IMG/VR virus record: IMGVR_UViG_3300009508_000004
Strand: one strand, 5' to 3'
DNA length: 62,535 bases
Source of the DNA: a virus
Shown: positions 4,344 through 61,310 of the stretch, one piece after another
Layout: each line of letters starts with the position of its first letter
Position numbering within the stretch: position 1 is the stretch's first letter
The notes under the pieces: generated by a model
Seen by the model: only the letters and a program-made list of their open reading frames with translations
Databases searched by the model: none
Told to the model about the DNA's origin: nothing
Program-made: the position numbers and the translations under genes

Positions 4344-4625
4344 TTATTTCCCTGAAACTAATCCGTGTAACTGTACGGTGGCATCGGCAATAGCACCTGT
4401 TTTTCTACCCGTCCATTTGCCAGCCGTCTTTGAAGCCGCTTTTCTTATGCCCGCCTTCGCAACCGTACCTATGCCAGGTAAACCCACTAGAGTATTGTCC
4501 ATTTTAATACCCCCTGTGCCTGTTTTCTCTCTTTTAGTGCGCAATGCTTGGTTTATTTCATCGCTAGACATCACTTGTTTTAGAGGTGATCCTAATGAGT
4601 TGGGTCCGATTCCTTTTTTATACAT
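4344..4625 (-). CDS. Small basic protein with GIGPxxLGSPLKQ N-terminus (93 aa)
   Basis: I place the start at the internal ATG 4625..4623 (MYKKGIGPNSLGSPLKQ...). This N-terminus is paralogous to those of 22316..22651 and 22663..22797. The track ORF extends to 4676. Confidence 0.55.
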   Translation of the reverse strand: MYKKGIGPNSLGSPLKQVMSSDEINQALRTKREKTGTGGIKMDNTLVGLPGIGTVAKAGIRKAASKTAGKWTGRKTGAIADATVQLHGLVSGK

Positions 4626-4904
4626 TATTAGCTTGTTACGATCATACCTTGTATGATTACGCACACGCGCAAACACTTAACATGCGACATTAGGTAGCTA
4701 TGTTTATTATTATATACCCTATCGTCACACTACCCCGTAGTTAATTTTATTCCGAAGGAATTTTTTTTTTAAAATGAACCAATTTTAGTCCACCCCACTG
4801 AAAAAATTTTTGTAAGATACAGGGAACTAACGGGTAACATATATAAAATAATTGATACACCCCAAAACGGAAACTGATTTCTTTTGGCCAGCCCCCCTGT
4901 TGAT

Positions 4905-5036
4905 TCTGGTTTCCGGTTCACGGTTCACGGGTTCCAGGTCTGGTCCCGGCTACTGATCTGGTCAGACTAACTGTTTTCCGTGCACGGTTCGGGCTTTTCC
5001 CCTGGTCTGGTCTGGTCCCGGCTCTGGTCCTGGCTG
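4905..5036. repeat. GC-rich short tandem/dispersed repeats in the divergent hub
   Basis: ggttcacggttcacgggttcc; tctggtcccggct occurs twice (4939 and 5010); ctggtctggtctggtc. No credible ORF here. Confidence 0.7.
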
Positions 5037-5113
5037 TGTGCATGCGAGCGGCAGCGAGCTGCAAGCGTATAGCATATAGGTGTATATACCTAGGTGTTTG
5101 TGCATATAGCATT

Positions 5114-5157
5114 CTTACAAAACCGACACGAGATGGTATCGATAATATATATGTAAC
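5114..5157 (+). promoter_or_regulatory. Early promoter-like cassette, copy 1 of 14
   Basis: cttacaaaaccgacacgagatggtatcgataatatatatgtaac; ATG at 5174. Confidence 0.6.
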
Positions 5158-5173
5158 CAAAAGAGTAATACAC

Positions 5174-5329
5174 ATGATAACATTCACACAGTTCTTCAAC
5201 GAAAACGCGAACCACTACTCACTCATCAAGTACAAGACTAACTACGCGAACCTGACAGATGAACAGATGGAACAGATCGACTACGAGGTCGGCATCGAGT
5301 GGGTAGACTACAGGATGGAACGGGTCTAA
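5174..5329 (+). CDS. Hypothetical early protein (51 aa)
   Basis: ATG 17 nt after cassette copy 1. This is the 3' part of track ORF 5036..5329 (MITFTQFFNENANHY...). Confidence 0.55.
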   Translation: MITFTQFFNENANHYSLIKYKTNYANLTDEQMEQIDYEVGIEWVDYRMERV

Positions 5330-5372
5330 CTACAGGACCGACACGAGTGACTGACGATAATATAAATGTAAC
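5330..5372 (+). promoter_or_regulatory. Early promoter-like cassette, copy 2 of 14
   Basis: ctacaggaccgacacgagtgactgacgataatataaatgtaac; ATG at 5386. Confidence 0.55.
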
Positions 5373-5385
5373 TAAAAGAAACTAT

Positions 5386-5574
5386 ATGACTACTACTGAC
5401 AACAACCTCGCCCTACTACAAGACCTTTACCTATGTGTGTCTGCGACCAGACCAAAGAACATGGACCAACTACTAAACTTCCTTGAGGATCAGATGGCGA
5501 TTGAAGAGGATGTGATGTATGAACCAGATACAGAGGCCAAGTACTTGGACGTCTTCTTGAAGAAGAACAAGTAA
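5386..5574 (+). CDS. Hypothetical early protein (62 aa)
   Basis: ATG 14 nt after copy 2. This is the 3' part of track ORF 5299..5574 (MTTTDNNLALLQDLY...). Confidence 0.55.
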   Translation: MTTTDNNLALLQDLYLCVSATRPKNMDQLLNFLEDQMAIEEDVMYEPDTEAKYLDVFLKKNK

Positions 5575-5824
5575 CAACATAACAGGAGCAGTCGCTTGAC
5601 ACGGGAGCAAGCCAACGAAACAGACTGCAAGCAGGACAGCCTAGCAGCTTAATCCGCGCAGAGGCCAGCAACATAAGAACCTGGTGCCACGGCTGGACCT
5701 GCATCCTGTACACATAACAGGGGACAGCAACAGTGCTGAACTAATATCGGAACAGATGACCGGAGAGGATCCGGCAAAAAGACCAGGTGTGGTTTCGAGC
5801 CTGGCGCCCTGTGCGCCTCAAGGC

Positions 5825-5910
5825 GTATAGCAAAATGTATAGCATTTTGTGCATAGCATTTTATACCTAGTACAATATACCTAGTGTTTATACCTAGTAT
5901 TATATACCTA
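5825..5910. repeat. Array of two short words at about 13-bp spacing (operator/iteron candidates)
   Basis: GTATAGCA at 5825 and 5837, GCATAGCA at 5851, then ATACCTA(G) at 5863, 5877, 5890 and 5904. The same words recur upstream of copy 1 (5067, 5086, 5104). Confidence 0.6.
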
Positions 5911-5917
5911 CAATTTT

Positions 5918-5961
5918 CTTACAAAACCGACACGATGGAGTTTCGATAATATAAGTGTAAC
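5918..5961 (+). promoter_or_regulatory. Early promoter-like cassette, copy 3 of 14
   Basis: cttacaaaaccgacacgatggagtttcgataatataagtgtaac; ATG at 5976. Confidence 0.6.
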
Positions 5962-5975
5962 AAAAAAGAAATAAT

Positions 5976-6146
5976 ATGAATCCACCAATTATCAACTTCC
6001 AAGACTATCTACTATTTAGAAAAGACGACTTTGCAAATGCAACATTCGGAGTGCTATACGACCAGCTGTCAAGCGTAGGCAAAAATCTGATCGACGACGA
6101 CGTCGCTTCTGAATACATCAAAATCTTCAATCTGCTATACAAGTAA
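5976..6146 (+). CDS. Hypothetical early protein (56 aa)
   Basis: Below the track cutoff: MNPPIINFQDYLLFRKDDFANATFGVLYDQLSSVGKNLIDDDVASEYIKIFNLLYK. ATG 15 nt after copy 3; the stop abuts copy 4. Confidence 0.5.
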   Translation: MNPPIINFQDYLLFRKDDFANATFGVLYDQLSSVGKNLIDDDVASEYIKIFNLLYK

Positions 6147-6190
6147 CTTACAAAACCAATACGAGACTAAAACGATAATATAAACGTAAC
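6147..6190 (+). promoter_or_regulatory. Early promoter-like cassette, copy 4 of 14
   Basis: cttacaaaaccaatacgagactaaaacgataatataaacgtaac; ATG at 6205. Confidence 0.6.
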
Positions 6191-6204
6191 TAAAAACAAG
6201 TAAT

Positions 6205-6534
6205 ATGAAAAAAGAAATGAACAACAAAGAAATCGTACGTCAGGCAATCGCTAAAATGTCAGACGCTGAAAAAGCAAAAGTATTCCCTCCAATCGAACGT
6301 AAGAACTTCGTAGTGCGTGAAAACTGGTACGGACGCAATCAAATCATAACGTTCGTCAACAACAAAAAGCAACGTGTAACGTACAACCACGATGAAGCTC
6401 TCAAGCTCATGTTGCCAAAACTCAAGCTACAAGCTTGCTGGCAAAAGCGTGGCTACTGGTCGCAGTCGACTGACATGCCCATGATTGTGAGACACTCTGA
6501 TGCAGTGCTTGAGCGTACTGAGGTGGCCGAATAG
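6205..6534 (+). CDS. Hypothetical early protein (109 aa)
   Basis: Track ORF. ATG 15 nt after copy 4. Followed by the hairpin caccc-tccg-gggtg at 6541..6554. Confidence 0.65.
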   Translation: MKKEMNNKEIVRQAIAKMSDAEKAKVFPPIERKNFVVRENWYGRNQIITFVNNKKQRVTYNHDEALKLMLPKLKLQACWQKRGYWSQSTDMPMIVRHSDAVLERTEVAE

Positions 6535-6562
6535 GCCCCTCACCCTCCGGGGTGCTATACAA

Positions 6563-6600
6563 CCTACAAAACCTATACGATCAACAACCGATAATATAAC
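6563..6600 (+). promoter_or_regulatory. Early promoter-like cassette, copy 5 of 14 (3' GTAAC part missing)
   Basis: cctacaaaacctatacgatcaacaaccgataatataac; next ATG at 6604. Confidence 0.5.
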
Positions 6601-6603
6601 TGA

Positions 6604-6693
6604 ATGAAACAAATACTAACTGAATATGCTGAACCAGTAATTGTACTGATAGCTGTAACCATTGTAACCTTAATCCTTATACATGCACACTAA
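6604..6693 (+). CDS. Possible 29-aa membrane micropeptide
   Basis: MKQILTEYAEPVIVLIAVTIVTLILIHAH. ATG 4 nt after copy 5; the stop overlaps the next start region. Very short, so uncertain. Confidence 0.3.
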   Translation: MKQILTEYAEPVIVLIAVTIVTLILIHAH

Positions 6694-6694
6694 T

Positions 6695-6919
6695 ATGAAA
6701 CTAGACAACCTACAACTGATCGCGCTCACAGCGCTTGTAACAATGACCCTGATCTCTGCACTATACACAGTGCTGCACAAACCAGAACTACCTCACCACG
6801 CTGTGGTTGTACAGGACGGCCTGGTTGACGTCTGGACACAAGACCAGATGCTAATGAAAGACGGTGTGCTATACATCACTTTCGACCCGATCCGTCAAAT
6901 GAATCTTTTACAAGACTAA
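6695..6919 (+). CDS. Small membrane protein (74 aa; alternative in-frame start at 6683)
   Basis: MKLDNLQLIALTALVTMTLISALYTVL..., one predicted TM helix. The last codons (LLQD*) form the 5' half of cassette copy 6. Confidence 0.55.
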   Translation: MKLDNLQLIALTALVTMTLISALYTVLHKPELPHHAVVVQDGLVDVWTQDQMLMKDGVLYITFDPIRQMNLLQD

Positions 6920-6950
6920 TACGGGAACTGTACGATAATATAACTGTAAC
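6906..6950 (+). promoter_or_regulatory. Early promoter-like cassette, copy 6 of 14
   Basis: ttttacaagactaatacgggaactgtacgataatataactgtaac; ATG at 6966. Confidence 0.6.
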
Positions 6951-6965
6951 TACAAAACGAATATT

Positions 6966-7178
6966 ATGAAACTAAATGGAAAACCTTTTGCAATCGAAAA
7001 CATTGACGGCATTTACATGCATGACTACCCTGACTTCTGTGACGCATATATTGAAGATGCATCTATTCTTGAAGACGGCAAATGGCGATCTGCTACTGAT
7101 GCCGAAATCGACCAAGCGAACGATGAGTTCTACGATACTATAAACGAAATTATTCACAGCGACCAACTATACTTATAA
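6966..7178 (+). CDS. Hypothetical acidic early protein (70 aa)
   Basis: Track ORF; ATG 16 nt after copy 6. Confidence 0.6.
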   Translation: MKLNGKPFAIENIDGIYMHDYPDFCDAYIEDASILEDGKWRSATDAEIDQANDEFYDTINEIIHSDQLYL

Positions 7179-7182
7179 TACT

Positions 7183-7386
7183 ATGGATACAAGAACAGAA
7201 GCATACGAGTACTGTGTAAGACAAGTAAACGACTACCCAACACTGGCTGACCAGATCAACGACTTCTACAGCCTGTTCCGAATGGAGATATCAGATTCTG
7301 AAACGTCTGTTGAAAACGAGTGGGAGTTGCTATACAGCGATGTTGAGGACTTAATAAAGACTTACAAGATCAGTACGACTGTCTAA
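7183..7386 (+). CDS. Hypothetical acidic early protein (67 aa)
   Basis: Track ORF, tightly packed after 6966..7178. Its 3' end contains the 5' half of copy 7. Confidence 0.6.
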   Translation: MDTRTEAYEYCVRQVNDYPTLADQINDFYSLFRMEISDSETSVENEWELLYSDVEDLIKTYKISTTV

Positions 7387-7404
7387 CGATAATATAACTG
7401 TAAC
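7361..7404 (+). promoter_or_regulatory. Early promoter-like cassette, copy 7 of 14
   Basis: cttacaagatcagtacgactgtctaacgataatataactgtaac; ATG at 7420. Confidence 0.6.
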
Positions 7405-7419
7405 TAAAAAAGTAATACT

Positions 7420-7584
7420 ATGAAACCACAAGAAATCGTATCACTACACGCAGATGCCCATGAAGCTATCAGATACTTCTACGAGATAGGAATGATAGAC
7501 AACCTGCACGGTGATCAACAGCACTACGTCGAAGCACTAATCAAATTCGCTGCAAACAAAATGCACATAGAATTAGTAGGGTAA
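7420..7584 (+). CDS. Hypothetical early protein (54 aa)
   Basis: Below the track cutoff: MKPQEIVSLHADAHEAIRYFYEIGMIDNLHGDQQHYVEALIKFAANKMHIELVG. Followed by a hairpin at 7590..7604. Confidence 0.5.
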   Translation: MKPQEIVSLHADAHEAIRYFYEIGMIDNLHGDQQHYVEALIKFAANKMHIELVG

Positions 7585-7830
7585 CACCCACCCCCTAGCG
7601 GGGTTGCTATACACCGGCCTGCTCCTGAAATAAGAGCGGAAGAGTAGACTCCGTCCTACATAAAGGTTTTTATGCTATACACCGGCACGTCGGCGGAAGC
7701 GAATAAAACGGTATGCAGAAACACCGGTGGTTCGCGTTTCTCACCTTTTTTTTACCAAATAAAACAGTGACAATAGGGTGTTATGTAGTATACTTAATAG
7801 GCTAACGTCACTATTTCCCAAGTATCCTCA

Positions 7831-7857
7831 CTTTCTAGCGAAAGCTTCTTTTTTTTT
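7831..7857 (+). terminator. Candidate intrinsic terminator inside the 7585..7989 non-coding gap
   Basis: ctttc-tagc-gaaag stem-loop followed by a cttc T9 run. The stem is short and AT-rich. Confidence 0.35.
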
Positions 7858-7923
7858 ACCCCACACACAGAGGAGCTGAGTAGTACCTGTATTCCTTTTT
7901 TTTCTTACAAATGAAGTATATGC

Positions 7924-7968
7924 TTTTACAAGATGAACACGATACCGAATCGATAATATAAATGTAAC
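7924..7968 (+). promoter_or_regulatory. Early promoter-like cassette, copy 8 of 14
   Basis: ttttacaagatgaacacgataccgaatcgataatataaatgtaac; ATG at 7990. An extra cttacaaatg half-site lies at 7904. Confidence 0.6.
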
Positions 7969-7989
7969 TGAGAAACAAAAAAAAATAGT

Positions 7990-8190
7990 ATGAAAAACTA
8001 CAATGGTAAAGAAGTAAAGTTGGTGTGTGAAAGCACCGGTGTTGAGAAGGGTATCGGTGATACGGTATTGAGTTTTCGCGGAGAGTTGGCGACTATTAAG
8101 TCGATGCGACCACCGCACAAGTCGAGTTCAAGTGGTTTCGTAAATAGCTTCTATGCTCACGTGTATAACCTAAAATTCGTTGAGGTATGA
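7990..8190 (+). CDS. Hypothetical early protein (66 aa)
   Basis: Track ORF; ATG 22 nt after copy 8. Confidence 0.6.
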   Translation: MKNYNGKEVKLVCESTGVEKGIGDTVLSFRGELATIKSMRPPHKSSSSGFVNSFYAHVYNLKFVEV

Positions 8191-8417
8191 GTAAGTTAAA
8201 GATAGGTGATAAAGTATGGTGGCGAGGTGGCTTCGGTAGCGATCCGCGTAAGGTAGCGACTGTTGAAGAAATTGAAGTTACCGGTGGCTACAAGTACGGT
8301 GAGCACGTTGACGAAGTTGATTGGGACGAAGTATACGACCGTAATGTTGTGGTGAGCTTCTCTGACTACTCTAATTGGGCTTACGCTAGTCAGATAAAAC
8401 GGTACATACAAGATTAA
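8187..8417 (+). CDS. Hypothetical early protein (76 aa)
   Basis: Track ORF with an ATGA start/stop overlap with the upstream gene. The C-terminal YIQD* codons form the 5' half of copy 9. Confidence 0.6.
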   Translation: MSKLKIGDKVWWRGGFGSDPRKVATVEEIEVTGGYKYGEHVDEVDWDEVYDRNVVVSFSDYSNWAYASQIKRYIQD

Positions 8418-8448
8418 CACGAGCACCGATCGATAATATAAACGTAAA
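8405..8448 (+). promoter_or_regulatory. Early promoter-like cassette, copy 9 of 14
   Basis: catacaagattaacacgagcaccgatcgataatataaacgtaaa; ATG at 8460. Confidence 0.6.
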
Positions 8449-8459
8449 ACAAAAGTATT

Positions 8460-8603
8460 ATGACTGACGAACAAATAATGAATGCACCTGTGTGGCCGAG
8501 TCGACTAATCTTCAATGCCTCGCTGTTGTACCACAAGAAACTAAAAGACCTAAGCAACGATGAGTTGTTGGCAGTAAAAAAGTATTCACTAAACATTAAG
8601 TAA
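8460..8603 (+). CDS. Hypothetical early protein (47 aa)
   Basis: Below the track cutoff: MTDEQIMNAPVWPSRLIFNASLLYHKKLKDLSNDELLAVKKYSLNIK. Confidence 0.45.
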   Translation: MTDEQIMNAPVWPSRLIFNASLLYHKKLKDLSNDELLAVKKYSLNIK

Positions 8604-8605
8604 TT

Positions 8606-8836
8606 ATGAACCGACCTTATAAATACATTACGGTGCTTGACTACTCAAACGGCCAAGTATACCTGTACGACTACGACGAAACTGAAATGCCAAATGCGGT
8701 GAGCTTTGTTTCCTCACGCCACGACTTAGATAAAGTAAACTATATGGTGCACCAATATACACCAGCACTATGGACGAAAGATTTGTACTACTGCAATAGA
8801 GAGCAAGCGTACCAATTAACTAGCGAAGAAGGCTAA
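8606..8836 (+). CDS. Hypothetical early protein (76 aa)
   Basis: Track ORF, 2 nt after the previous stop. Confidence 0.6.
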   Translation: MNRPYKYITVLDYSNGQVYLYDYDETEMPNAVSFVSSRHDLDKVNYMVHQYTPALWTKDLYYCNREQAYQLTSEEG

Positions 8837-8880
8837 CTTACAAAACTAACACGGCCACCGATCGATAATATCAATGTAAC
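8837..8880 (+). promoter_or_regulatory. Early promoter-like cassette, copy 10 of 14
   Basis: cttacaaaactaacacggccaccgatcgataatatcaatgtaac; ATG at 8894. Confidence 0.6.
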
Positions 8881-8893
8881 TAAAACGAGTACT

Positions 8894-9277
8894 ATGAAAT
8901 TCATTAAAAAAACAAAACAGGGTAACTTACACTATATTCTTAGTGATGGCCGTATCGGTGCCATATACCCGGATACCGGTTATGTTCGAGTGTCTCACTC
9001 TATGAAAGGTTTCACTGATGACGAACGCGGTCGGTTCTACCTTAAACGCCAACGCCAGCGTAATATTGATGCAGTGCGTAACAATTCTACCGGCTCTTTA
9101 AAGATGTACCAAATCAACCCACAACGTAAAACCGATCGCTATGTAGTATGGAGCGTCGATAAATACGGTCGCGAGTTGTACTACAAATATACTGCCACCG
9201 AGCGTGTGCTATACCCAAACGATACCATAACCCTCGTTCTTTTACTTCAAAAGTTCGAAAATAAAAACTGCAAATAA
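8894..9277 (+). CDS. Hypothetical basic early protein (127 aa)
   Basis: Track ORF. Confidence 0.65.
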   Translation: MKFIKKTKQGNLHYILSDGRIGAIYPDTGYVRVSHSMKGFTDDERGRFYLKRQRQRNIDAVRNNSTGSLKMYQINPQRKTDRYVVWSVDKYGRELYYKYTATERVLYPNDTITLVLLLQKFENKNCK

Positions 9278-9651
9278 TGGAAATTAAAGCAACACCATTG
9301 TCGCACTCTAAAAAAATTGAGTTTGACGTCAACAAAGTAAAACAAGTATACTATGGCCGTCTCGATAACTGCCGTTGCGGTTGTGCAGGTGATTACTACC
9401 AACCCGGTGTAACACCTAAAGCTGACGCTTTTATTACTAAAGCACTTGAAATACTCAACAAGTATTCTAACTCACCGCACGAGCAAGTAATGTACGATCG
9501 CTTTACCTACAAAGACCCAACACAAAACGAGTTGTACTTTGAAATACAAACCGAAACACGTGACTTCGCTTGGCGCCCCGATGATGACGACGACGACTAC
9601 TGGGAAAGTGATGAGGGTGATGTAGGGTATGCATTCTACATACAAGATTAA
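9277..9651 (+). CDS. Hypothetical protein with CRCGC motif and poly-Asp tail (124 aa)
   Basis: Track ORF. Contains NCRCGCAGDYY and PDDDDDDYWESDEGD. The C-terminal YIQD* codons form the 5' half of copy 11. Confidence 0.65.
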   Translation: MEIKATPLSHSKKIEFDVNKVKQVYYGRLDNCRCGCAGDYYQPGVTPKADAFITKALEILNKYSNSPHEQVMYDRFTYKDPTQNELYFEIQTETRDFAWRPDDDDDDYWESDEGDVGYAFYIQD

Positions 9652-9680
9652 CACGACACCTAATCGATAATATAATAAAC
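9639..9680 (+). promoter_or_regulatory. Early promoter-like cassette, copy 11 of 14
   Basis: catacaagattaacacgacacctaatcgataatataataaac; ATG at 9688. Confidence 0.55.
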
Positions 9681-9687
9681 AAACGAT

Positions 9688-9885
9688 ATGACACAGAAAG
9701 AACTCACTACGCATGCTACGGTTATTACCGAAGCCGTACTAGACAACATGTACTCTACCGTATCTAATTATATGGAAGACGTACTCGAACACGACCCTTA
9801 CATGGAAGACTTCAGTGCAGTGCACGACGAAATATTCTTTGAGTGTGTGAAAGCAATTGGTAACCTTCAAATTTCTATAAAATGA
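9688..9885 (+). CDS. Hypothetical acidic early protein (65 aa)
   Basis: Track ORF. Confidence 0.6.
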   Translation: MTQKELTTHATVITEAVLDNMYSTVSNYMEDVLEHDPYMEDFSAVHDEIFFECVKAIGNLQISIK

Positions 9886-10196
9886 CACTAGAACAACTGA
9901 ATCAAATGAGTTACGATAAAATCGTATTTCTCTGGAATGAATACTGCGAAGAAGTCAACTACTTCACCGACATGCTATACACCAACGACGACGAAGCCTT
10001 CAGTACATTCGGTTTCACGATCAACGGCACGCTAATGAATAGTAGTAACGACGTATATGATTGGGACGACGAATTCGTAACTGCTGACGGCTATGGTAAC
10101 CCATTGTCCGCTGCAGACCCTAAAATACTTATGGACCTTGATGCCCTGCTCGAGTGGTACTTACAAAAGCAACACGACAGCGAATCGATAAAATAA
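9882..10196 (+). CDS. Hypothetical acidic early protein (104 aa)
   Basis: Track ORF with an ATGA overlap. Its 3' end reads through cassette copy 12 (..WYLQKQHDSESIK*). Confidence 0.65.
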   Translation: MTLEQLNQMSYDKIVFLWNEYCEEVNYFTDMLYTNDDEAFSTFGFTINGTLMNSSNDVYDWDDEFVTADGYGNPLSAADPKILMDLDALLEWYLQKQHDSESIK

Positions 10197-10203
10197 TTGT
10201 AAC
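10160..10203 (+). promoter_or_regulatory. Early promoter-like cassette, copy 12 of 14
   Basis: cttacaaaagcaacacgacagcgaatcgataaaataattgtaac; ATG at 10222. Confidence 0.55.
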
Positions 10204-10221
10204 TAATAAAAACTTATAACT

Positions 10222-10473
10222 ATGGAAACACTTTATGACCGCTTAAAGCCTGAATTATTAGGCAAGCTAATGAAAAACCGCAAAAAGTATGAATTTTCTG
10301 TTAACCGATGTATAACTCTATTAAGTAGCAACCACCGCTACCACGACTTAACTATCGACGATGCAAACTACATATCTACATTTGTCGAAGCCGATTGGGT
10401 AAACGCTACATGCGTCGAGCTACGCCACGGCAGCTATATGTTTAACGAACCAAAAACTACTAACGATGAGTGA
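10222..10473 (+). CDS. Hypothetical early protein (83 aa)
   Basis: Track ORF. Confidence 0.6.
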   Translation: METLYDRLKPELLGKLMKNRKKYEFSVNRCITLLSSNHRYHDLTIDDANYISTFVEADWVNATCVELRHGSYMFNEPKTTNDE

Positions 10474-10855
10474 TTTTATACCACAAGACCCTGACAACTT
10501 AGAAGACTTTAAAGATATACTTGCTGAGTACAACAAAATGCAAAACAGCGAACTTCAATTCTTCTTCGACGAACACCCGAGCGATATTGATTTTATGGTC
10601 AACAACGAATACACCGCTGACGGCTACGATGTGTGGGTAATGCGATCTGATAGCGAAGGCATATACTTAAGCGAAAATGTGTACTACCATGAGCCTAGCG
10701 GCGACGACGTGCTTAATCAGCTAGACTATATGTCTGACGACTGCAAAATATACTGCGAGATCGACTCAATGGAAATCGAATATACTTTGAAAGACCGCTT
10801 ATATGTTAACTATGATAACTACAAAACCAACTTAGAAGATGAAAAAGTTAAATAA
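10466..10855 (+). CDS. Hypothetical strongly acidic early protein (129 aa)
   Basis: Track ORF, very D/E/Y-rich. Confidence 0.65.
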   Translation: MSDFIPQDPDNLEDFKDILAEYNKMQNSELQFFFDEHPSDIDFMVNNEYTADGYDVWVMRSDSEGIYLSENVYYHEPSGDDVLNQLDYMSDDCKIYCEIDSMEIEYTLKDRLYVNYDNYKTNLEDEKVK

Positions 10856-11081
10856 AGAAATGCGCCCACTACCTAAATGGTTTGATGGTGAAGTATATAC
10901 CGAGGGCGGTACAGCCCGTAACCCATACACTGGTGAGACTGCAGAATTAAATGCACACGAGCTTACCATGTACGATCTTATTCTAGGCGCCGAAGCTATG
11001 GGCGCTTATAGAGTAATGCAGCAGGGACTAGGTTGGTTCCGACTTGCAAATGCTGAGGCCTATATGGTGTTACTCGATTAG
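10839..11081 (+). CDS. Hypothetical early protein (80 aa)
   Basis: Track ORF. Confidence 0.6.
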   Translation: MKKLNKEMRPLPKWFDGEVYTEGGTARNPYTGETAELNAHELTMYDLILGAEAMGAYRVMQQGLGWFRLANAEAYMVLLD

Positions 11082-11139
11082 TTACGAGATGTAAGAGCGC
11101 TGGAGATAATATTTTTAGCGGAGTAGGGTCAAAGGCGTT

Positions 11140-11180
11140 CTTACAAAACTAACACGAGTACCCAACGATAATATAATAAA
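11140..11180 (+). promoter_or_regulatory. Early promoter-like cassette, copy 13 of 14
   Basis: cttacaaaactaacacgagtacccaacgataatataataaa; ATG at 11190. Confidence 0.55.
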
Positions 11181-11189
11181 CAAAAGAAA

Positions 11190-11897
11190 ATGAGCAAGAA
11201 AGTAATATGGTTTGACGGTAGCAATGTGTTTGTCGCTCGCAAGGGTAAAACAACAAATGCTAAGATATCAGATGGTTCACCTGTTCTGCAAACATATACC
11301 TTTAGCTACGAGCAGTGGAGTTTGGCCACTACTAGCAAAGGTTTTGGTATCAAAACATTCTTTGCACTTGACGGATCAAATTGTCTGGACTGCCCATTTT
11401 CTTTAGGTAACGGTAACGGCGGTTGCTATACGCACAAATTCCAACAATACGTCGGCTTTCTTTCACTGCTACGAAGTATCAAACCTGAAGAACTCAGCCC
11501 CTTCAACGATTTGAAATTCAAGCAGTTACTGAAGTTAGCTTCGAGGTCTTATGTAAGATTTGGTACGTATGGCGAGCCGTCGCTTATCGCTCCTAATGTT
11601 GTTGCTGCGATCGTTGCAGTAGCTAAAACATGGACGGGTTACACCCACCAATGGAACAAACCATTCGCTGCTGAGCACGGTAAATACTTTATGGCTTCCG
11701 TACATAATCAAGCTGAAGCTAACGTTGCACGTAATAAAGCATACCGATCTTTTATTGCAAGTAACGATAATTCTGAAAAAGCCGTATCTTGTCCAGCCTC
11801 TAAAGAAGCAGGCTTTAAATCTAACTGCGCTAAGTGTGGCTTATGCAGTGGTGTACTTGGCAAGGGTAATAAAGACATTAAAATACTACAACACTAA
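11190..11897 (+). CDS. Cys-rich protein (235 aa), GP88-family-like
   Basis: N-terminal cluster CLDCPFSLGNGNGGCYT, central RFGTYGEPS and TGYTHQW, C-terminal cluster CPA...CAKCGLCSG. The resemblance to the phage GP88 family is recalled from memory, not searched. Confidence 0.4.
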   Translation: MSKKVIWFDGSNVFVARKGKTTNAKISDGSPVLQTYTFSYEQWSLATTSKGFGIKTFFALDGSNCLDCPFSLGNGNGGCYTHKFQQYVGFLSLLRSIKPEELSPFNDLKFKQLLKLASRSYVRFGTYGEPSLIAPNVVAAIVAVAKTWTGYTHQWNKPFAAEHGKYFMASVHNQAEANVARNKAYRSFIASNDNSEKAVSCPASKEAGFKSNCAKCGLCSGVLGKGNKDIKILQH

Positions 11898-12436
11898 TGA
11901 TAGACGCAACTTTCGATCAACAATTGCTAGTCCGCAATTACTGGTCAACTATAGAAGAAACTCATGATGTTGGCCGTAACCGCGAACGCCGAAATGTGCT
12001 ATACCGCTTTGCTTTCTTCGTAGCGTGCCGTGAGCTTTCTAACTTATCACTGAGTACCATTGGTCGTATACTAAAAAAAGACCATGCGACGGTCATACAT
12101 GCAATGAAATCCCACGAAAGCAATTACCGCTTCGATACACAATATCGTGAAGTATACACTGAGATACACACTTGTTTAAAAGATATCATTGGAGAAAACA
12201 CTGAGCAGGTATATAATGTAATTAAGCAGCGAGCTATGCAGGTTGATCCTGATTTGTACCATGATCATATCATTGAAACGTACAAACAGCGTCTTACTGC
12301 CCAAGAGCGTGAGCATAAAGACAGCACTGAGGTATTAAAAAGTACTTTGCTAAAAACACAAAAACACAATAGAACACTACAAAAGCGCCTTGACGCTTTA
12401 AATACTGAATGTTTAAGACTAAAAAATCTATTATGA
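11897..12436 (+). CDS. DnaA domain IV-like helix-turn-helix DNA-binding protein (179 aa)
   Basis: RNVLYRFAFFVACRELSNLSLSTIGRILKKDHATVIHAMKS matches the DnaA C-terminal signature (R..amYL.reLt..Sl..IG..f..rDHtTVlhA). Coiled-coil tail. Confidence 0.6.
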   Translation: MIDATFDQQLLVRNYWSTIEETHDVGRNRERRNVLYRFAFFVACRELSNLSLSTIGRILKKDHATVIHAMKSHESNYRFDTQYREVYTEIHTCLKDIIGENTEQVYNVIKQRAMQVDPDLYHDHIIETYKQRLTAQEREHKDSTEVLKSTLLKTQKHNRTLQKRLDALNTECLRLKNLL

Positions 12437-12573
12437 GCAAGATGAAACAGTTTTTACGTATCGCTAATGCAAGACTACGTAAGGTTTACAAAAACAAACA
12501 ACAAAGAAAAGCGTGGGCCGCTAATATGTGGCGCCGATGGATAGAAAGACAGAATATAGAACAAGACTTATAG
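12433..12573 (+). CDS. Small basic protein (46 aa)
   Basis: Below the track cutoff: MSKMKQFLRIANARLRKVYKNKQQRKAWAANMWRRWIERQNIEQDL. ATGA overlap with the upstream stop. Confidence 0.4.
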   Translation: MSKMKQFLRIANARLRKVYKNKQQRKAWAANMWRRWIERQNIEQDL

Positions 12574-12654
12574 GGGGAGGGATTTTACTAACTTAATATA
12601 AAAGTGTAATGGTTATTCACACCCTCCCTTTATAACCTTTAAAACAAAAGAAAA

Positions 12655-12828
12655 ATGAAAAACATATTTAAGATCACCATCGAGCAATACGATAACAAAG
12701 CAAGCGTAGAGGTTAAACAAGCCGACCTTACGGTATCAGAAGCTATGGAGCTAATTCAAAGAGCATTATTAGGTATAGGCTACGCACAATCTTCAGTAGA
12801 AAAGTACTTTAACACCAAAGAGAAATGA
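12655..12828 (+). CDS. Hypothetical protein (57 aa)
   Basis: Below the track cutoff: MKNIFKITIEQYDNKASVEVKQADLTVSEAMELIQRALLGIGYAQSSVEKYFNTKEK. Followed by three ATGA-coupled micro-ORFs. Confidence 0.4.
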   Translation: MKNIFKITIEQYDNKASVEVKQADLTVSEAMELIQRALLGIGYAQSSVEKYFNTKEK

Positions 12829-13068
12829 GAGAGATACTACTTGAGATGTACGAAAAGCTATGGGAAGCTGACAAGGATAAGTTTACTTGGAATGCAATAC
12901 TAAAGGATACACTTGAGAAATTAGAAAAGAAATGAAAGAGATAGTAATAATCACTTTGCTTGTAAGTGTGATGTTTATGTACCTCACTAATAAAGAAAAG
13001 AAATGAGAGACATAATAAATTTGTGCGATCGTGACCGTGATGACAACGGTATTGAAGCAGATTAAGTT

Positions 13069-13112
13069 CTTACAAAACGAACACGACACCTAAACGATAA
13101 TATATATGTAAC
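13069..13112 (+). promoter_or_regulatory. Early promoter-like cassette, copy 14 of 14 (last; heads the replication arm)
   Basis: cttacaaaacgaacacgacacctaaacgataatatatatgtaac; ATG at 13130. Confidence 0.6.
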
Positions 13113-14110: not shown

Positions 14111-14191
14111 TCTGGTTGTGGTAACTCTTGATACAGAGTTAGATAGTGACGATAGCTAATTAAGATTATAATCAAAGCACCCTAATGTCGC

Positions 14192-14812
14192 ATGTCTAAA
14201 TACGAACGAAATATGGAGTACCTTAATAGAAGAAAGATTATATACCGAAGAAATCCTATCACTGATAAGCCTTCGCATGTATATGATTGGGGATTCTTCT
14301 ACGAAGAAGGTACACGAGAGTACTTTGCGTTGTTTGCGTCTAAAGCTAAGATCAATACATACAGGTCGCTCAAGTGGCACTTGCATGTATTGTGGCATCT
14401 TAACCATGCGATGACTCAAGATGAGTTTAGAGAAACAGCTTTTTACTTAGCCGATCGTGAAAACGGATTTGTAACGTTTACACTTTCCGAACAAACTCTT
14501 GAAACATTTATACACGATGTGTCTATAAAAGATTTAGACGAAAGGCCGCCGAATAAACCAAGAAAGATTATATTTAAAGATTCATGCCCCTTAAACAGAA
14601 TTGAGAAGCTAAAGATTGTAGGCCGTATTGTAGGCAAACAAAAGCTTTCTGAGACTGAAATATATGATGCAATGTTATTGCTTCATGATGATGGTGAGAA
14701 GCTAACTATTAATAAGATAGCTGAATCACTAGGAGTATCAGCGAGAACCATACACCGTAACATGTCTGCTGAGTTAAAAAAAGAGAAAGAACTGTTAAAT
14801 ACCACACTATGA
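14192..14812 (+). CDS. DNA-binding protein with C-terminal helix-turn-helix (206 aa); regulator or origin-binding candidate
   Basis: C-terminal LTINKIAESLGVSARTIHRNM is a classic HTH. Confidence 0.55.
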   Translation: MSKYERNMEYLNRRKIIYRRNPITDKPSHVYDWGFFYEEGTREYFALFASKAKINTYRSLKWHLHVLWHLNHAMTQDEFRETAFYLADRENGFVTFTLSEQTLETFIHDVSIKDLDERPPNKPRKIIFKDSCPLNRIEKLKIVGRIVGKQKLSETEIYDAMLLLHDDGEKLTINKIAESLGVSARTIHRNMSAELKKEKELLNTTL

Positions 14813-14911: not shown

Positions 14912-15667
14912 ATGAAAAAGTACAACATTCAAAATTACATTCGATATAAAAATGACGTAGAGAAAGTAATATTAAGAAACGAAGGATTAACCTGGGGTGA
15001 AATGTCCAGAGACCAATTGGTAGCTCAGTTCATACCCTTAGTTGAAAACCTTGCGAGAAAATTTAGTACGTCTGATCAAGCTTCAGGTGTATTAAGTATA
15101 AATGATTTGATCCAGGAAGGTAACTACGGTTTGGTCGCCGCAGTTGATAAAATAAATTGGGACACAATACTTGAGTCTGAGGACCCTGAAAAAACGATTA
15201 AGTCATTCCTATCAAAAAGAATTAAAGGCGCGATACGACGCGCTATAGATATAAACCGAGGAGATGTACGTATACCTGAACACAAACTTAATGAGATTCG
15301 AAAGTCACCAGATGATGAACGCATGGTTGCGATGTTCTTCAATAGTGTCTTTTCCAGCATTGATGCCTACAACGCGGACGATGAAAACCCACACTTCCAA
15401 GTTCCTGATACGTCGGAACCTTATAATATTGCTATAATAAACTCTTATCTACTAGGTTTAATGCGCCAGTATTTAACACCCATTCAGTACGATGTTGTAA
15501 GACTTTCATACGGTTTAGACCAAGATAAGATGCCAGCTACGCAAATTGCTGTATATTGCAGCATCAATGTGGCTACGGCCAATGTAAGGATATCACAAAT
15601 AAAGAAGGAAGCAATCGATACACTGATTGAAAACACCGATCCTTCCCAAGTGTTAGACTTTATGTAA
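14912..15667 (+). CDS. Sigma-70 family RNA polymerase sigma factor (251 aa)
   Basis: Region 2: LVENLARKF...INDLIQEGNYGLVAAVDK. Region 4: LTPIQYDVVRLSYGL...TQIAVYCSINVATANVRISQIKKEAIDTL. Confidence 0.85.
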   Translation: MKKYNIQNYIRYKNDVEKVILRNEGLTWGEMSRDQLVAQFIPLVENLARKFSTSDQASGVLSINDLIQEGNYGLVAAVDKINWDTILESEDPEKTIKSFLSKRIKGAIRRAIDINRGDVRIPEHKLNEIRKSPDDERMVAMFFNSVFSSIDAYNADDENPHFQVPDTSEPYNIAIINSYLLGLMRQYLTPIQYDVVRLSYGLDQDKMPATQIAVYCSINVATANVRISQIKKEAIDTLIENTDPSQVLDFM

Positions 15668-24750: not shown

Positions 24751-27700
24751 TTATTTAGGCCTACGTTCAGGATATCTGATATAGTAATTCTCAAGAGCCT
24801 TATCTATTTTTTCTGATTCTTTCTTTTTTGCATTTGTAGCCCGAGTTTCTTTAGCTTTAACTTTACCTTCCTCTTTTCGTTTTGCTTTAGCTTCAGTCTT
24901 AATAAGATCGTGCTCTTCATTTTTAGCGCCTACGTCCCAAGTCTTCCAGCCAAGTGCTAATGCTATACGTTGCCAAGTTGTGTTGCGAGAATCGAGTGCT
25001 TCGACTATTGAGTTAAGCTCATCAACAATACGATCAAGCGGTACATTTCCGAGTGCAGATGAAAGGTTACCTATAATAGAATAAGCTGGACTTAAATTTA
25101 ACTTACCGTCAGCCATAACATCAAAACCTCTGGCTGCTAAAGTATCTCTTTCAAACTTTTTGGTTTGAATAGCTGAATAAAGTTTTCTAGCTTTTGAACC
25201 AATAGGTGGAGACAAACTTAACGCTTGTAGTATAGTGTAGGTGTGGTCGGACATAAATCCTTTTTCTTCTTGTTTAAAATACTCTGTAATAGTATTTTTA
25301 AGCGTTGCAATTACTGCGCCTCTAACCCCGCTACCTTTTAAAACAGAATCTGTCATGCTATTAATAATACGCAAGGTTCTTTGGTCATTTTTACGTTCAA
25401 GCTTTTCTAGCTCTTTTTCTGTCATTTCAGACTCGTCTTCTTCGTCAAATCCAGGTATGATAGCAAACAATGCGCTTTGTAATGCAGAGAATATAAAGTT
25501 CTGCACTGCACCATAATAAATAATCTTAGATATATGTGTTTTAGCATCGCCTCTACCATTAGCAAGATCTTTCATCGCTTTTTTCATCAATCGAGTATAC
25601 TGCATCGGAGTATTCTGGAATGCTAATACAAGACGACCTAAAGGACTACGTTGCTCTTGAGAAACCAAATATGGGTCAGAAGATTGCTGTGCTTCGTCCG
25701 CGGTTTTGCTAAAGTCTTCAAATGCTTGCTTTTCTGCGGCCGCCTGCTCCATACCTTCTTTAACGTAAGTATTTACGCGATTTCTATAAAACGACGCACC
25801 CCCAGCTGCAATAGCAAAACTATCCGCAATTTGAGTAGGTGTAAAACCAATTTTTAGCAAGTAAGCAATCACAGCACCCGCTCTATTTTTTGCACCTTTT
25901 GCTTCATTAGCAATTTCCGCCTGGTTTACATCTGTTTGTAATCCCGATCTACGTTCTTTTAACTTGTCAGAATTAAATATCATTGCAAAGTCAGACCAAT
26001 ATTGAGGTTGATTTGCAAAGGCCGCCGCAACTTTTAAAGGATTGTTGTCTGACCAGTTTATAAAGTTAGCGGTTGAAAGAGTTTGTAATATTGCAGACCG
26101 ACGGTTAAAGAACATAATAGCACCAGTAGAGTTGTTCACCCAGTTATACCAAGCATTCACCTGTGCATTATCACTGCCTGTTGTGCGGTTAGTACCGTTA
26201 GTCATTGCAAATAAAGCATCTTTTATAGCTTCTTTATGTCGCGTTCCGTAAACGGCTTCTATTTTGTTTAAGTTTTCAGCACTAAATATTGCTTCAGAGT
26301 TTTCAATAAATTCTTGTAAATATTTCTTTCTACCAACTTTTTCAGTCATTCCGTTCAAATCGGAAACTAAAGTGCGAGATAACCAATGCTCACCCGGCTC
26401 CATCCATGTATCTTGTCTAGATATAAGCTGCATCGCATTACCCATTTCAATAAACTGTGGCATTGCATTAATAGCGTTGATCAAAAATCTAATGTCGTTT
26501 TTATCCATTCCCGGTATATCTATACCTTGCTGGGTCCACATGTACACCCTTAATGCATGGTCATAAGTGTAATCGCTATTTGCAATTTTCTTACCTAGCA
26601 TTTTAAACAACTTTTTATCTGCCTTTCTTAAGGCATTAAGTTCGCGACGAATCTGCTGCTTTACAGCTTCAATCATTGCAATACCCCTAGTATAAGGAGT
26701 TATTATATTATCTTCAATAAACTTTTGATCAGCTTCCCCTTGCTTCCCTTTTCCTGCAAAGGTGTATGAGGTTAAGCCTCTAAAGTCTTCAGCTGATGCC
26801 GGCACAAACAAGCGGTATTTACCTTTTCTCTCACCCATCATACGAGCTTGAGCTTTTGAATAAATCTTGTCAGCAGCCACTCCTTTAGTCCGCTCAATCA
26901 TTCCGTTAAGCTCTTCACTTAGCCCTTGGCTAAACTTAGCGCCGGATGCTTCCAGCCCAGTAGTTACTTGATTTACAAATGCTTCAGGTAAAGCTTCACC
27001 GTAAGAAAGATTGTCAGTATTAATCTCGTAAAAGCGACCTGCATAGTCTTCCTTATACTGCTTAGCGCTTTCTTGTACGCTATCCCAAGTTTTGGTTACT
27101 ATAAAGTCAGCTAATGATCTTTCTGTTCTACTTTTATTTCTGTCAACAGCTACATTTTTACTAGTTTTAACATGCACCATATGTATTTCAAACCCTGCAT
27201 CTTCTAAAGCTTTCATTTTTTTCGTTGTAGCTTTATATGATGCGCCGGTGCCATCGACTACCATACTTTCTTTTGCGGCAGTATTCCTAGCTAAATCTTC
27301 TTCAGCGGCTTTTCTAGCTTTCCAACCTAGCTTAGCCCGTAAAGAACGCTGCTCCTTGTCATAAGTTTTTTCGTCGGTTGGTAGCCCGGCCTCTTTAATG
27401 TATCCTTCTAAGTAAGGGTCTTGGTTAACTAATCTGTATCCTTTATCAGTTAAGCCTAAACCTTTTAAAACGCTGGATTTTCCCGCACCAGGAGCCCCGA
27501 CCATAAACACGGCAATTGGAACGCTTGATGAATTTTTAACAGACTGGTTTAATAAATCTTTAGCTCTTTGAGCATTTTCGTAGTTAATGTCAATTTGCTG
27601 CTCATATATTGCTCGCTGCTGTTCATTATTAATATGATCCTCAAGCGTTTGCAGTTTATTATTTTCGCTTACGAAAGCAACAATATTTTTTCTATCCGCT

Positions 27701-56546: not shown

Positions 56547-56576
56547 AATTAAATAGTTTTATTGAATTCAATAATG

Positions 56577-56609
56577 CAAATATAATACCAAAACAGAATA
56601 ATCTGTCAA
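56577..56609 (-). promoter_or_regulatory. Candidate host-type promoter upstream of 56292..56546
   Basis: Minus strand: TTGACA-16 nt-TATTAT, overlapping TATATTTG (matches the Bacteroidetes -7 TAnnTTTG). Confidence 0.35.
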
Positions 56610-56615
56610 GTTGTC

Positions 56616-60900: not shown

Positions 60901-61310
60901 ACTTGGCTAGCAGATGCTACAGATTGGCTACCGATGTTACCTGTGTGGATAACAGCATTACCATTATTGAAAATAGTATTACCAACGTAAAGATTATTTT
61001 CTACTCTAACGTGAGCATCACCCTCACCTACAGAAAACAACTTTACACCGCCGTTGTTAATAGCATCGCCATAAAAGCGAATGCCTCCGTATGTCTGACT
61101 AGCTCCAATTTTAATACCAGTGTGCCAGTCTAAGGTCAACTTGGTGTAATTGCCGCCAAAGTTCTCCATATGTGTATAGATGGAGTAATCATTCTGGGCA
61201 TTTGAGCCTAGGTAAAGTCTTCCGTTTGAGGCGGTAGTATAAGCATTTGTTACACCATTGTTTAATGCAAGAAGACTTCCATTTACAGTGGTACTTAAAA
61301 GATTTGCCAT
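57909..61310 (-). CDS. Tail fibre protein with C-terminal S74 intramolecular chaperone/autoprotease domain (1133 aa)
   Basis: Five GNIGSQSV-x-YA-x-S-x-GN repeats. C-terminus YSDSRIKENVATIDSALDKVMSLRGVEYNK...GVIAQEI...P..V plus a coiled coil. Confidence 0.85.
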   Translation of the reverse strand: MANLLSTTVNGSLLALNNGVTNAYTTASNGRLYLGSNAQNDYSIYTHMENFGGNYTKLTLDWHTGIKIGASQTYGGIRFYGDAINNGGVKLFSVGEGDAHVRVENNLYVGNTIFNNGNAVIHTGNIGSQSVASASQVSGVSVSATEMNRLKTTLGVTGLPYSCDIFVEGDPDTYYPVHFIWGDQDIWRRIIIKRGYSEQAPWDPIGTGVHHGGLLIDWEGNFGGWGGAEYSDRLRVFQESYTTICADMYRTTHSMGYTFFLRGGGAVYHIYSDQNIRGYHQDGFPDIAYDTNFKFYDSATPAYIVYAPAPLTTINSSRIDGLRTKKQSQFDGRYQQSGTAINTGNIGSQSVNYAASAGNADTVGGYSPIIAYGSNDVRGRVLVADPGSGNISTRNPELYSGEVRLGAAWDRGGVFAEGVLSLSTSSSQIDFVFSNTRGATVAEDGNIYMSWAGAWLSTLLDAKQNASTAINTGNIGSQSVSYANNSGNSATTSQRDFSGDVSTSGMGRFAGWYTGNAQTGLAAEIGVSAGQAYIIAYNRQSGAYGTLNLESTGTNLRISGSTVNVTSGTLQQGGNNVIHAGNIGSQSVSYATSAGNSNNTSQIAFTDLKGNFPSGSGGGHSFAPNHYSMGLDVGNGGWDHPHYRDLIIGYHTGVRIGANYSGIRFYNNSPTTDANNDGNGDGEEALLMTIGGYVGTASQTDVVVNNNLFANGSMRAPIFYDSDNTNYYLNPAGGSRLRNLYVGDSGDDWSDPGSWGTQVRFSNEPHVKFVLHARTPGIEAGMYVHTPGSVFMGSYTAHVLSLMYAGNMRMQVEDSRIYSNVYMESASSMRAPIFYDSADTGYYLDPNGTSNLLKLSDRTMGFNGMNPMSANSPYEPRYNASVNYRTGSMGYGTVGLNAIGSNWGSGFIDSWSSPAEQPNTTTSHWVGLQSIHYGHQDSTNFYGFQMVSGADTNRFYLRAAWPTPLSWVEVITSGNIGSQSVNYASSAGAVEWSNVSSKPSTFAPDAHNHTPTEVGLSNLSSNGNALAGNFTATGDITAYSDSRIKENVATIDSALDKVMSLRGVEYNKIGSEEKSLGVIAQEIREVLPEVVKEQENGMLSVAYGNITAVLIEALKEQQKQIDELKAQIDAITK

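Follow-up and report, generated by a model that had tools for sequence, protein, structure and literature searches.

Promoter-like cassettes tiling the early arm of an uncultured Bacteroidetes-type phage and a phage-encoded sigma factor as their putative reader

The viral genome IMGVR_UViG_3300009508_000004 (62,535 nucleotides; "the window" in the following always means this whole stretch of DNA) contains in its early arm 14 copies of a cassette of ~44 bp, all on the plus strand and all between positions 5114 and 13112. These cassettes are very probably promoters, since they are confined to one strand and one arm, keep a constant distance to the start codons, and have an invariant core resembling a -10 element as well as a pyrimidine/purine start signature. 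As to their reader, we give about an even chance to a self-amplifying early circuit in which the cassettes would be read by the host core RNA polymerase carrying a sigma factor encoded by the phage itself (14912..15667, plus strand). An earlier note on this DNA, made from the letters alone, had described the cassettes as promoter-like and compared them with promoters of dedicated phage polymerases; the first part of this reading stands for the four reasons named, and the second does not.

The 14 copies lie within 1 nt of the positions given in the earlier note. They align in register and without gaps, so that the internal spacing is fixed and does not vary over 7-9 nt as had been written. Searching the window with the pattern TACAA-N7-ACG-N9-CGATAATAT and up to 2 mismatches returned exactly 14 matches, namely these cassettes, against 0.03 expected from 100 shuffles. 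With a weight matrix built from the 14 copies, the copies score 45-59 bits and the rest of the 62.5-kb window less than 12 bits on either strand. The sharpest conservation is found at GATAAT(A) rather than at TAATAT, and the TGTAAC tail of the first consensus is present in 11 copies and missing from those at 6563, 9639 and 11140. The preceding open reading frame (ORF) ends within the cassette or adjoins it in 9 of the 14 cases, and the observation that the 5' half, with the first box (box 1), often codes for the ends of preceding ORFs was borne out (LLQD* once, YIQD* twice, LQKQHDSESIK* once). At every window cassette an ATG follows 2-26 nt 3' of index 40, the index counting positions in the aligned cassette. 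The last copy, at 13069, indeed heads the replication arm, in an operon that continues through a helix-turn-helix (HTH) gene and the sigma gene into the replication genes.

An exact-pattern scan of IMG/VR found at least 119 stretches with the cassette, and many of those listed are homologous to the replication arm of the window with 66-87% identity. The 353 matrix sites among the 119 stretches listed never occupy both strands of one locus, and 305 unique sites yield the family logo tTTACAAAct.AAYACGA-N8-tCGATAATATAaaTG.A. Across these unique sites G28-A34 (GATAATA) is essentially invariant, with G28, A29, T30, A31 and A32 at 99-100% and C27 at 76%; a pyrimidine occupies index 39 in 89% of them, and index 40 holds a purine in 100% (G 83%, A 17%). 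In lineage variants GATAAT is retained but the upstream boxes are altered, as in TTTGCAAAC, TCACAAAYTAAAT without ACGA, or ATGC...AAAAACGA, and in further variants G or A replaces C at index 27. Neither the 353 sites of the listed stretches nor 304 sites at sigma loci include a copy on the opposite strand: of the cassette sites at 80 sigma loci, 295 lie on the sigma strand 5' of the gene, 9 lie 3' of it and 0 are on the opposite strand, and GATAATWW occurs 514 times on the sigma strand versus 53 times on the other. The restriction of the motif to one strand and one region thus extends to the relatives, in which the cassettes lie in the early arm upstream of sigma and at homologous gene starts instead of being scattered in both orientations.

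The position of the transcription start can be narrowed down from the relatives. The distances from index 40 to the ORF starts that follow peak at 18-24 nt and cluster a second time at 0-3 nt, and ten loci have the conserved MKKY start of the sigma factor at index 40-45, so transcription should begin at or before ~index 40. Taken together, these leaderless sigma starts, the pyrimidine/purine signature and the invariance of GATAAT favour an assignment in which GATAAT would be the -10 element (-12..-7) and index 40 would be +1. The alternative -10 registers TAATAT or TATAAA vary in several lineages. The leaders are A-rich and free of a Shine-Dalgarno sequence.

It is very improbable that the cassettes are not promoters at all and act instead as operators of an early repressor, as RNA processing or translation-enhancer sites within a long read-through transcript, or as a mobile mini-repeat. 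Boxes 1, 2 and CGA (TACAA, YACGA, TCGA) do recur at ~11 bp, as for a protein on one DNA face, TTACA...TGTAA forms an inverted repeat, and cassette and start codon are closely coupled. However, the TGTAAC arm of that repeat is dispensable in 3 of the 14 copies, the single strands fold no better than shuffles (z = -0.8 to +1.3; minimum free energy 0 to -2.5 kcal/mol) and have no Rfam match, and variable spacers between fixed blocks are a pattern of DNA recognition. Moreover, the opposite orientation is lacking in ~650 sites, the sites in relatives are found at homologous gene starts, and the invariant part is precisely a -10 hexamer with a pyrimidine/purine start signature.

The sigma gene is the only transcription gene recognised in the genome. 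Its product of 251 aa has the size of a sigma2-sigma3-sigma4 protein, carries KRIKGAI in region 2.4 and passes the general sigma-70 model (44.0 versus a cut-off of 42.9). At least 144 viral stretches encode homologues (58-99% identity), and none was found in cultured phages. In the HMMER alignment F99, K102, R103, G106 and R109 stand at the positions of Y430, W433, W434, Q437 and T440 of sigma-70 (SigA); K102/R103 hence replace the W433/W434 dyad, 'RIKGAI' is identical in Aquifex FliA, and R103 is invariant across 30 family members. A profile of the family aligns over its full length only to FliA-sized sigmas (1rp3, E = 1.9e-8). Sigma gene and cassettes occur together: cassettes lie on the sigma strand in 49 of the 53 sigma loci with at least 5 kb upstream, the other 4 having variants that keep GATAAT, and the sigma gene is present in all six cassette loci with at least 6.5 kb downstream. 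In ten related loci a cassette stands directly 5' of sigma. The earlier note had found no obvious cognate sigma factor; for the gene at 14912-15667, its co-occurrence with the cassettes, its identical direction, its position behind a cassette that would drive it, its group-3 region 2.4 and the CGATAA core make it the obvious candidate. The cassette is absent from the three sigma-less relatives that were examined (phi38:1, MW202828.1 and elemoE). Of these, phi38:1 has a motif of its own, AAACACTATCAAA, before ~12 genes (11-32 kb), MW202828.1 a perfect palindrome, GGTGTCGTTAACGACAC, ~25 nt before at least eight start codons (44.5-50 kb), and elemoE no repeat that we found; both motifs are unlike host sigma-A promoters, and neither of the two genomes has a recognisable polymerase or sigma.

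The likeness of cassette and sigma factor to the sigma-28 class (FliA / SigD / WhiG, group 3; TAAA-N15-GCCGATAA) points to the same pairing. Sigma-28 promoters consist of (-36)TCTAAAG(-30) and (-15)GCCGATAA(-8), and in sigma-28 W433/W434 are replaced by I79/R80; this Arg touches -12G and is a conserved residue of the group-3 sigmas (PMC12784957). Counted from the inferred start, the cassette has CGATAA at -13..-8, with G at -12 in 100% and C at -13 in 76% of sites, and its A-rich box at -38..-32 lies near the sigma-28 -35 position (-36..-30). The phage sigma falls into the class of ~240-250 aa, has no Trp dyad and carries Arg in place of W434. It differs from this class in being encoded by a phage, in scoring below the FliA cut-offs and in belonging to hosts without flagella or sigma-28; Flavobacterium psychrophilum possesses only sigma-A, sigma-54 and extracytoplasmic function (ECF) sigmas and no sigma-28.

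In the proposed circuit, sigma region 2 would read C-13 G-12 A-11 T-10 A-9 A-8 (T-7), i.e., CGATAAT, region 4 would read the A-rich TTACAAA at -38..-32, and the third box AAYACGA (-28..-22) would be read by a further partner. Initiation at the invariant purine of index 40 would produce leaders of 16-26 nt, A-rich and without Shine-Dalgarno sequence, or leaderless mRNAs in some units. Cassette 14 would drive the sigma gene, a cassette also stands directly 5' of sigma in the ten related loci, and the circuit would therefore be self-amplifying. The first sigma molecules might be made by host polymerase at a second element, element 2, which heads the HTH-sigma operon, or weakly at the cassettes; element 2 would then be a host-read, HTH-regulated promoter that supplies the first sigma. 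The regulon would be orthogonal to the host because Flavobacteria have no sigma-28. What the sequences themselves show is the repeat, its confinement to one strand and one arm, its conservation across the clade, its co-occurrence with sigma and the signatures described; the sigma factor as cassette reader, the start site and the route of bootstrapping we infer from them.

Several points weigh against this circuit. The NCBIfam FliA models give the sigma 28.1 and 26.6 bits, far from their cut-offs of 201 and 189.6. The cassette lacks the extended -10 'GC' of sigma-28 promoters at -15/-14 (index 25-26 are A 56% and T 59%), its index 4-10 ACAAAct (ACAAAAC in the window) matches TCTAAAG only partially, at 3-4 of 7 positions, the distance from -35 to -10 is one base longer, and the conservation of T-7 to A-4 and of the spacer box AAYACGA is foreign to that class. 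The region 4.2 helix varies in the relatives (TANVRVSQ, TATVIVSQ, SxYVRVSE, RYYVTVSE) with box 1 constant, and some lineages have lost box 2 with no corresponding change; covariation of this helix with box 1 or box 2 was looked for and none was seen. The co-occurrence of sigma and cassettes could reflect nothing but shared ancestry. Since the sigma gene lies downstream of the cassettes and is apparently transcribed from them, something else has to carry out the first round of transcription. Middle or late genes, not those of the first class, are the usual targets of phage sigmas. Finally, the RNA polymerase of Cellulophaga uses the T7 A1 promoter (-10 GATACT) in vitro, so the host holoenzyme might read GATAAT alone.

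This last point leads to the possible, though rather unlikely, alternative that the cassettes are extended early promoters read by the host sigma-A holoenzyme, and that the phage sigma then switches the polymerase to a later class, for example element-2 sites. This would be a conventional cascade, with the sigma gene at the end of a cassette-driven unit and directly behind a cassette in ten relatives, and tiny genes with a strong promoter each are typical of host-read early regions such as those of T4 and SPO1. GATAAT keeps A-11 and T-7, the Cellulophaga polymerase accepts T7 A1, and element 2 stands before the minus arm and the HTH-sigma operon with a CGATA-like string in its left half-site GACGATAG. 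In addition, the cassette shares with Bacteroidetes sigma-A promoters a TTTA/TTTG-like upstream box and A-rich leaders without Shine-Dalgarno sequence. However, flavobacterial sigma-A promoters have TAnnTTTG at -12..-5, with TA at -12/-11, and TTTG near -33 (PMC9723704), and the cassette has G instead of T at -12 (T in 0% of the 305 unique sites) and no TTTG in the -7 box: it reads GATAATAT in the TAnnTTTG register, and the alternative register TATAAATG is without T-8 and T-7. Its TTTA/TTTG box (index 1-4) lies 23 bp upstream of G28, the first base of GATAAT, as against 19-21 in Bacteroidetes promoters, and is thus 2-4 bp too distant. A 17-bp sigma-70 geometry fails as well, since GATAAT matches 5 of 6 positions but index 5-10 read CAAAct, and TTAACA-N17-TATAAT occurs in only 2 copies and in another register; register and spacing tests therefore agree with the misfit to both consensus sequences that had been reported before. 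We also considered whether box 1, read in reverse complement, could be a host promoter in antisense direction, and rejected this, TAnnTTTG being present in only ~1/3 of sites. Further, the upstream boxes differ between lineages although host sigma-A is highly conserved, and the cassette is not used by the sigma-less relatives, whose hosts are of the same kind. In a scan of genome collections, only single scattered matches were found outside phage-like contigs of metagenome-assembled genomes (MAGs), in line with the ~70 estimated by chance, and therefore no host regulon appears to use the cassette.

The other group of alternatives concerns factors brought in by the virion. No RNA polymerase was matched among 26 long ORFs (6 compared with Pfam and PHROGs, 20 with PHROGs only), and no further long ORF is left as a possible unassigned polymerase. 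The largest candidate, a virion-arm protein of 2810 aa (24751-33183, minus strand) with 87 homologues of 1800-3700 aa, has a conserved HExxH...E zincin motif at ~residue 928 and, in this branch, a Zeta-toxin/AAA_33 kinase-like domain at 1890-2040, the place of which is taken in many homologues by a HAD-phosphatase-like block (DFDDT...). Its most conserved part, residues 2090-2810, is predicted to be all-alpha (predicted local distance difference test score, pLDDT, 75) and has no PDB match (best E = 0.28). The protein contains no DxDxD, the other long ORFs show only DIDPD and DIDLD, and DFDxD, which together with two double-psi barrels characterises the large virion polymerase of crAss-like phages, is absent from the window and from the sigma-less relatives. 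It has no similarity to gp65-67 of Cellulophaga phage phi14:2, and BLASTP to gp65-71 gave nothing. Strings resembling T7/N4 polymerase motifs were judged chance-like, the RxxxK..YG-like one not being conserved. Altogether the 2810-aa protein looks like a polyvalent ejected cargo protein, and the earlier statement that no RNA polymerase can be recognised in this genome was upheld by the Pfam and PHROG searches, the missing DxDxD and the C-terminal module without PDB match.

The precedents that had been named with that statement, T7-class, N4 and crAss virion polymerases, were judged inapplicable. No single-subunit polymerase was matched among the long ORFs scanned, the conserved span is ~40 bp versus 17-23 bp in a T7-like promoter, and N4-like hairpin promoters were ruled out, as the cassettes do not fold. 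An enzyme or specificity factor delivered with the virion and unrecognised by sequence methods, either a part of the 2810-aa protein or a packaged sigma, is very unlikely as the reader. The genome architecture does parallel that of phi14:2, which injects its polymerase to read its early genes: both have a muzzle protein, and in both a giant virion protein is encoded at the corresponding place. The sigma-less relatives, too, have lineage-specific early motifs unlike host promoters. Against this stand the absence from the 2810-aa protein of DxDxD and of similarity to gp65-67, its only catalytic signatures being those of the zincin and of the Zeta-toxin-like kinase, its all-alpha end without PDB match and the lack of N4-type hairpins. 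A related version, in which a virion-carried factor (the sigma-28-like sigma, or an unrecognised specificity factor within the cargo protein), in place of the whole polymerase that crAss-like and N4-like phages inject, would start early transcription by hijacking the host core at the 14 cassettes as soon as infection begins, is improbable too, and a factor delivered in this way would explain why sigma lies within its own regulon.

For the phage sigma as reader, the supply of the first molecules could depend on element 2, a 45-48-bp palindrome with the consensus GYGACRATAGCC-N19(AT-rich)-GGCTAAYGTCRC and a TATAAT-like centre, of which the relatives contain 121 unique instances. One window copy (14146..14194, plus strand; GTGACGATAG-N26-CCTAATGTCGC, TATAAT-like centre) adjoins the start of the HTH gene (14192..14812, plus strand), a second (4681..4728, minus strand) lies upstream of the first minus-arm gene (4344-4676), and a third (7767..7811, plus strand) is found in the 340 nt without coding sequence that separate cassette units 7 and 8. 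The HTH protein (206 aa, C-terminal helix-turn-helix ..SARTIHRNM..) is encoded directly upstream of sigma and conserved in the clade. At least one element 2 half-site occurs within 1.5 kb upstream of sigma in 66 of the 80 loci, mostly at 640-780 nt, just before the HTH gene. The half-sites vary independently, which suggests a protein-binding palindrome and led us to reject a covarying hairpin. Element 2 is probably an operator/promoter for the HTH protein, which is itself the candidate for binding it, and may possibly constitute a cassette-independent promoter/operator of the HTH-sigma operon. An apparent 'element-2 half-site 35 nt before sigma' was discarded as a false positive in the coding sequence of a 46-aa ORF.

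The individual cassettes, all on the plus strand, are given here with their GATAAT, predicted start and ATG. Cassette 1 (5114..5157) has GATAAT at 5141-5146, a predicted start at ~5153 and its ATG at 5174. Cassette 2 (5329..5372; 5356-5361, ~5368, 5386) shows the box 1 variant CTACAGG and adjoins the stop of the upstream ORF, and it is followed by cassettes 3 (5918..5961; 5945-5950, ~5957, 5976) and 4 (6147..6190; 6174-6179, ~6186, 6205). Cassette 5 (6563..6606; 6590-6595, ~6602, 6604) is the first of the three without TGTAAC tail. An ORF of 29 strongly hydrophobic aa, MKQILTEYAEPVIVLIAVTIVTLILIHAH (6604-6693, plus strand), begins 2 nt after its predicted start, and the product would be a small membrane peptide made from a near-leaderless mRNA. 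For the remaining cassettes GATAAT and ATG are listed. In cassette 6 (6907..6950; 6934-6939, 6966) box 1 encodes ...LLQD* of ORF 6683-6919, and cassette 7 (7361..7404; 7388-7393, 7420) overlaps the 3' end of ORF 7183-7386. Next come cassette 8 (7925..7968; 7952-7957, 7990) and cassette 9 (8405..8448; 8432-8437, 8460), the latter with box 1 encoding ...YIQD* of ORF 8187-8417, then cassette 10 (8837..8880; 8864-8869, 8894) and the tail-less cassette 11 (9639..9682; 9666-9671, 9688), where box 1 encodes ...YIQD* of ORF 9277-9651. Cassette 12 (10160..10203; ATG at 10222) is a GATAAA variant, through which ORF 9882-10196 (...LQKQHDSESIK*) runs to its own stop. Behind cassette 13 (11140..11183; 11167-11172, 11190), also without tail, genes for a 235-aa Cys-rich protein (PHROG 2554) and a 179-aa protein with a DnaA C-terminal HTH follow (11190-12436, plus strand). 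Cassette 14 (13069..13112; 13096-13101, 13130) heads the HTH-sigma-replication operon.

The genome is complete, with a plus arm of tiny genes followed by replication genes and a long minus arm of structural genes. An exact direct repeat of 123 bp at its ends (1-123 and 62413-62535) indicates a circularly closed assembly or terminal redundancy and a true length of ~62,412 bp. Flavobacterium elemo phages, Maribacter phage Panino and an uncultured podovirus have major capsid proteins with 44-49% identity to the one encoded here. The muzzle protein has matches in Cellulophaga phi38:1 and phi18:3 (Pervagoviridae) and in Pfam crAss_MUZ, and the gene order mirrors that of the crAss-like phi14:2. Genes for a primase-helicase, Erf, an exonuclease, ThyA, MazG and a resolvase are present; the scan of the long ORFs turned up no gene for a DNA polymerase. 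A 20-kb part of the window had no match by megablast, and BLASTN of the cassette consensus against cultured phages gave chance matches only. Multi-copy cassette matches in genome bins fall mostly on Bacteroidetes, Flavobacteriaceae or Sphingobacteriales MAG contigs. Two contigs in Bacteroidetes MAGs, CBDICL010000005.1 (117 kb, Flavobacteriaceae) and QQUU01000066.1 (56 kb), carry 6-8 cassettes; since 117 kb is about twice the phage genome length, the former may represent a concatemer, wrong binning, or a phage copy that is integrated or episomal. Such cassette-bearing contigs could help host assignment. Most likely the phage infects a flavobacterium or some other bacterium of the Bacteroidetes, as the cultured relatives infect Flavobacteriaceae, the MAG matches are mostly from Bacteroidetes and the leaders are A-rich without Shine-Dalgarno sequence.

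Three non-coding stretches of the early arm (4677-5113, 5575-5917 and 7585-7923) contain G+C-rich short tandem repeats (CGGTTCA, CTGGT, TCTGGTCCCGGC) and several hairpin-plus-T-run sites. TATACCTAGTACTA is repeated 3.6 times directly upstream of cassette 3, and GCTATACA / TATAGCA strings recur in these stretches, in which no tRNA or Rfam matches were found; they may represent non-coding RNAs, an origin or a packaging site. Families of imperfect direct repeats of 33-67 nt, spaced 195-1179 nt apart, occur in the tail-fibre-like ORFs 239-1816 and 58348-60950 on the minus strand and look like coding repeats of a repeated structural motif.

How gene expression starts in crAss-related Bacteroidetes phages is poorly understood, and phi14:2, the sole model studied, gave no early motif. 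In the present clade the early promoter is sharply defined and exists in hundreds of natural variants, and it comes together with a candidate sigma and a candidate operator/HTH pair, all small enough for reporter or in vitro tests. In the literature we found no described motif of this kind and no flavobacterial phage sigma. If the pairing of sigma and cassette is true, it would offer Flavobacteria and other Bacteroidetes, for which genetic tools are scarce, an orthogonal set of sigma and promoter, and it would mean that a flagellar-type sigma fold was recruited by a phage in hosts without that sigma class. The cassette is moreover a practical marker to find and orient the early arm of such uncultured phages in metagenomes.

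A phage sigma with its own promoter class is a known kind of system. SPO1 gp28 and gp33/34, T4 gp55 and phiEco32 gp36 each have such a class, with which they serve genes of the middle or late phase; the genes that encode them have early promoters of host type. The proposed phage sigma would likewise redirect the host core polymerase to a phage-specific consensus, the difference being that here the cognate promoters tile the early arm and would drive the sigma gene. What appears new is the combination of sigma-28-like determinants, hosts without sigma-28, cassettes that tile the early arm and drive sigma, and an extra box in the spacer. The early promoters of T4 and the host-takeover promoters of SPO1 match the consensus of the host primary sigma. 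They resemble the cassettes in being numerous, conserved over ~40 bp and each placed before a few tiny early genes, but the cassettes do not match that consensus.

The closest comparison in the same host group is phi14:2, in which an injected DFDID polymerase acts, early transcripts have no common motif and middle promoters are of the host sigma-A type (TTG...TAnnTTTG) (bioRxiv 10.1101/2020.03.07.982082). A Bacteroidetes-type promoter-like site, CTTGACA-N19-TATATTTG, at 56547-56615 (minus strand) of the window is very like phi14:2 P070; as proof that late genes use sigma-A it was rejected, because 35 relatives show no conserved counterpart upstream of GroEL, and the strand-specific k-mers upstream of GroEL are reverse-complemented cassettes of the neighbouring early arm. 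Both phages share the two-arm layout, a muzzle protein, giant virion proteins and, as it seems, a phage-specific reading of the early arm. They differ in that the middle promoters of phi14:2 are unlike the cassette and in that the window phage, without such a polymerase, has a very strong early motif and a sigma gene.

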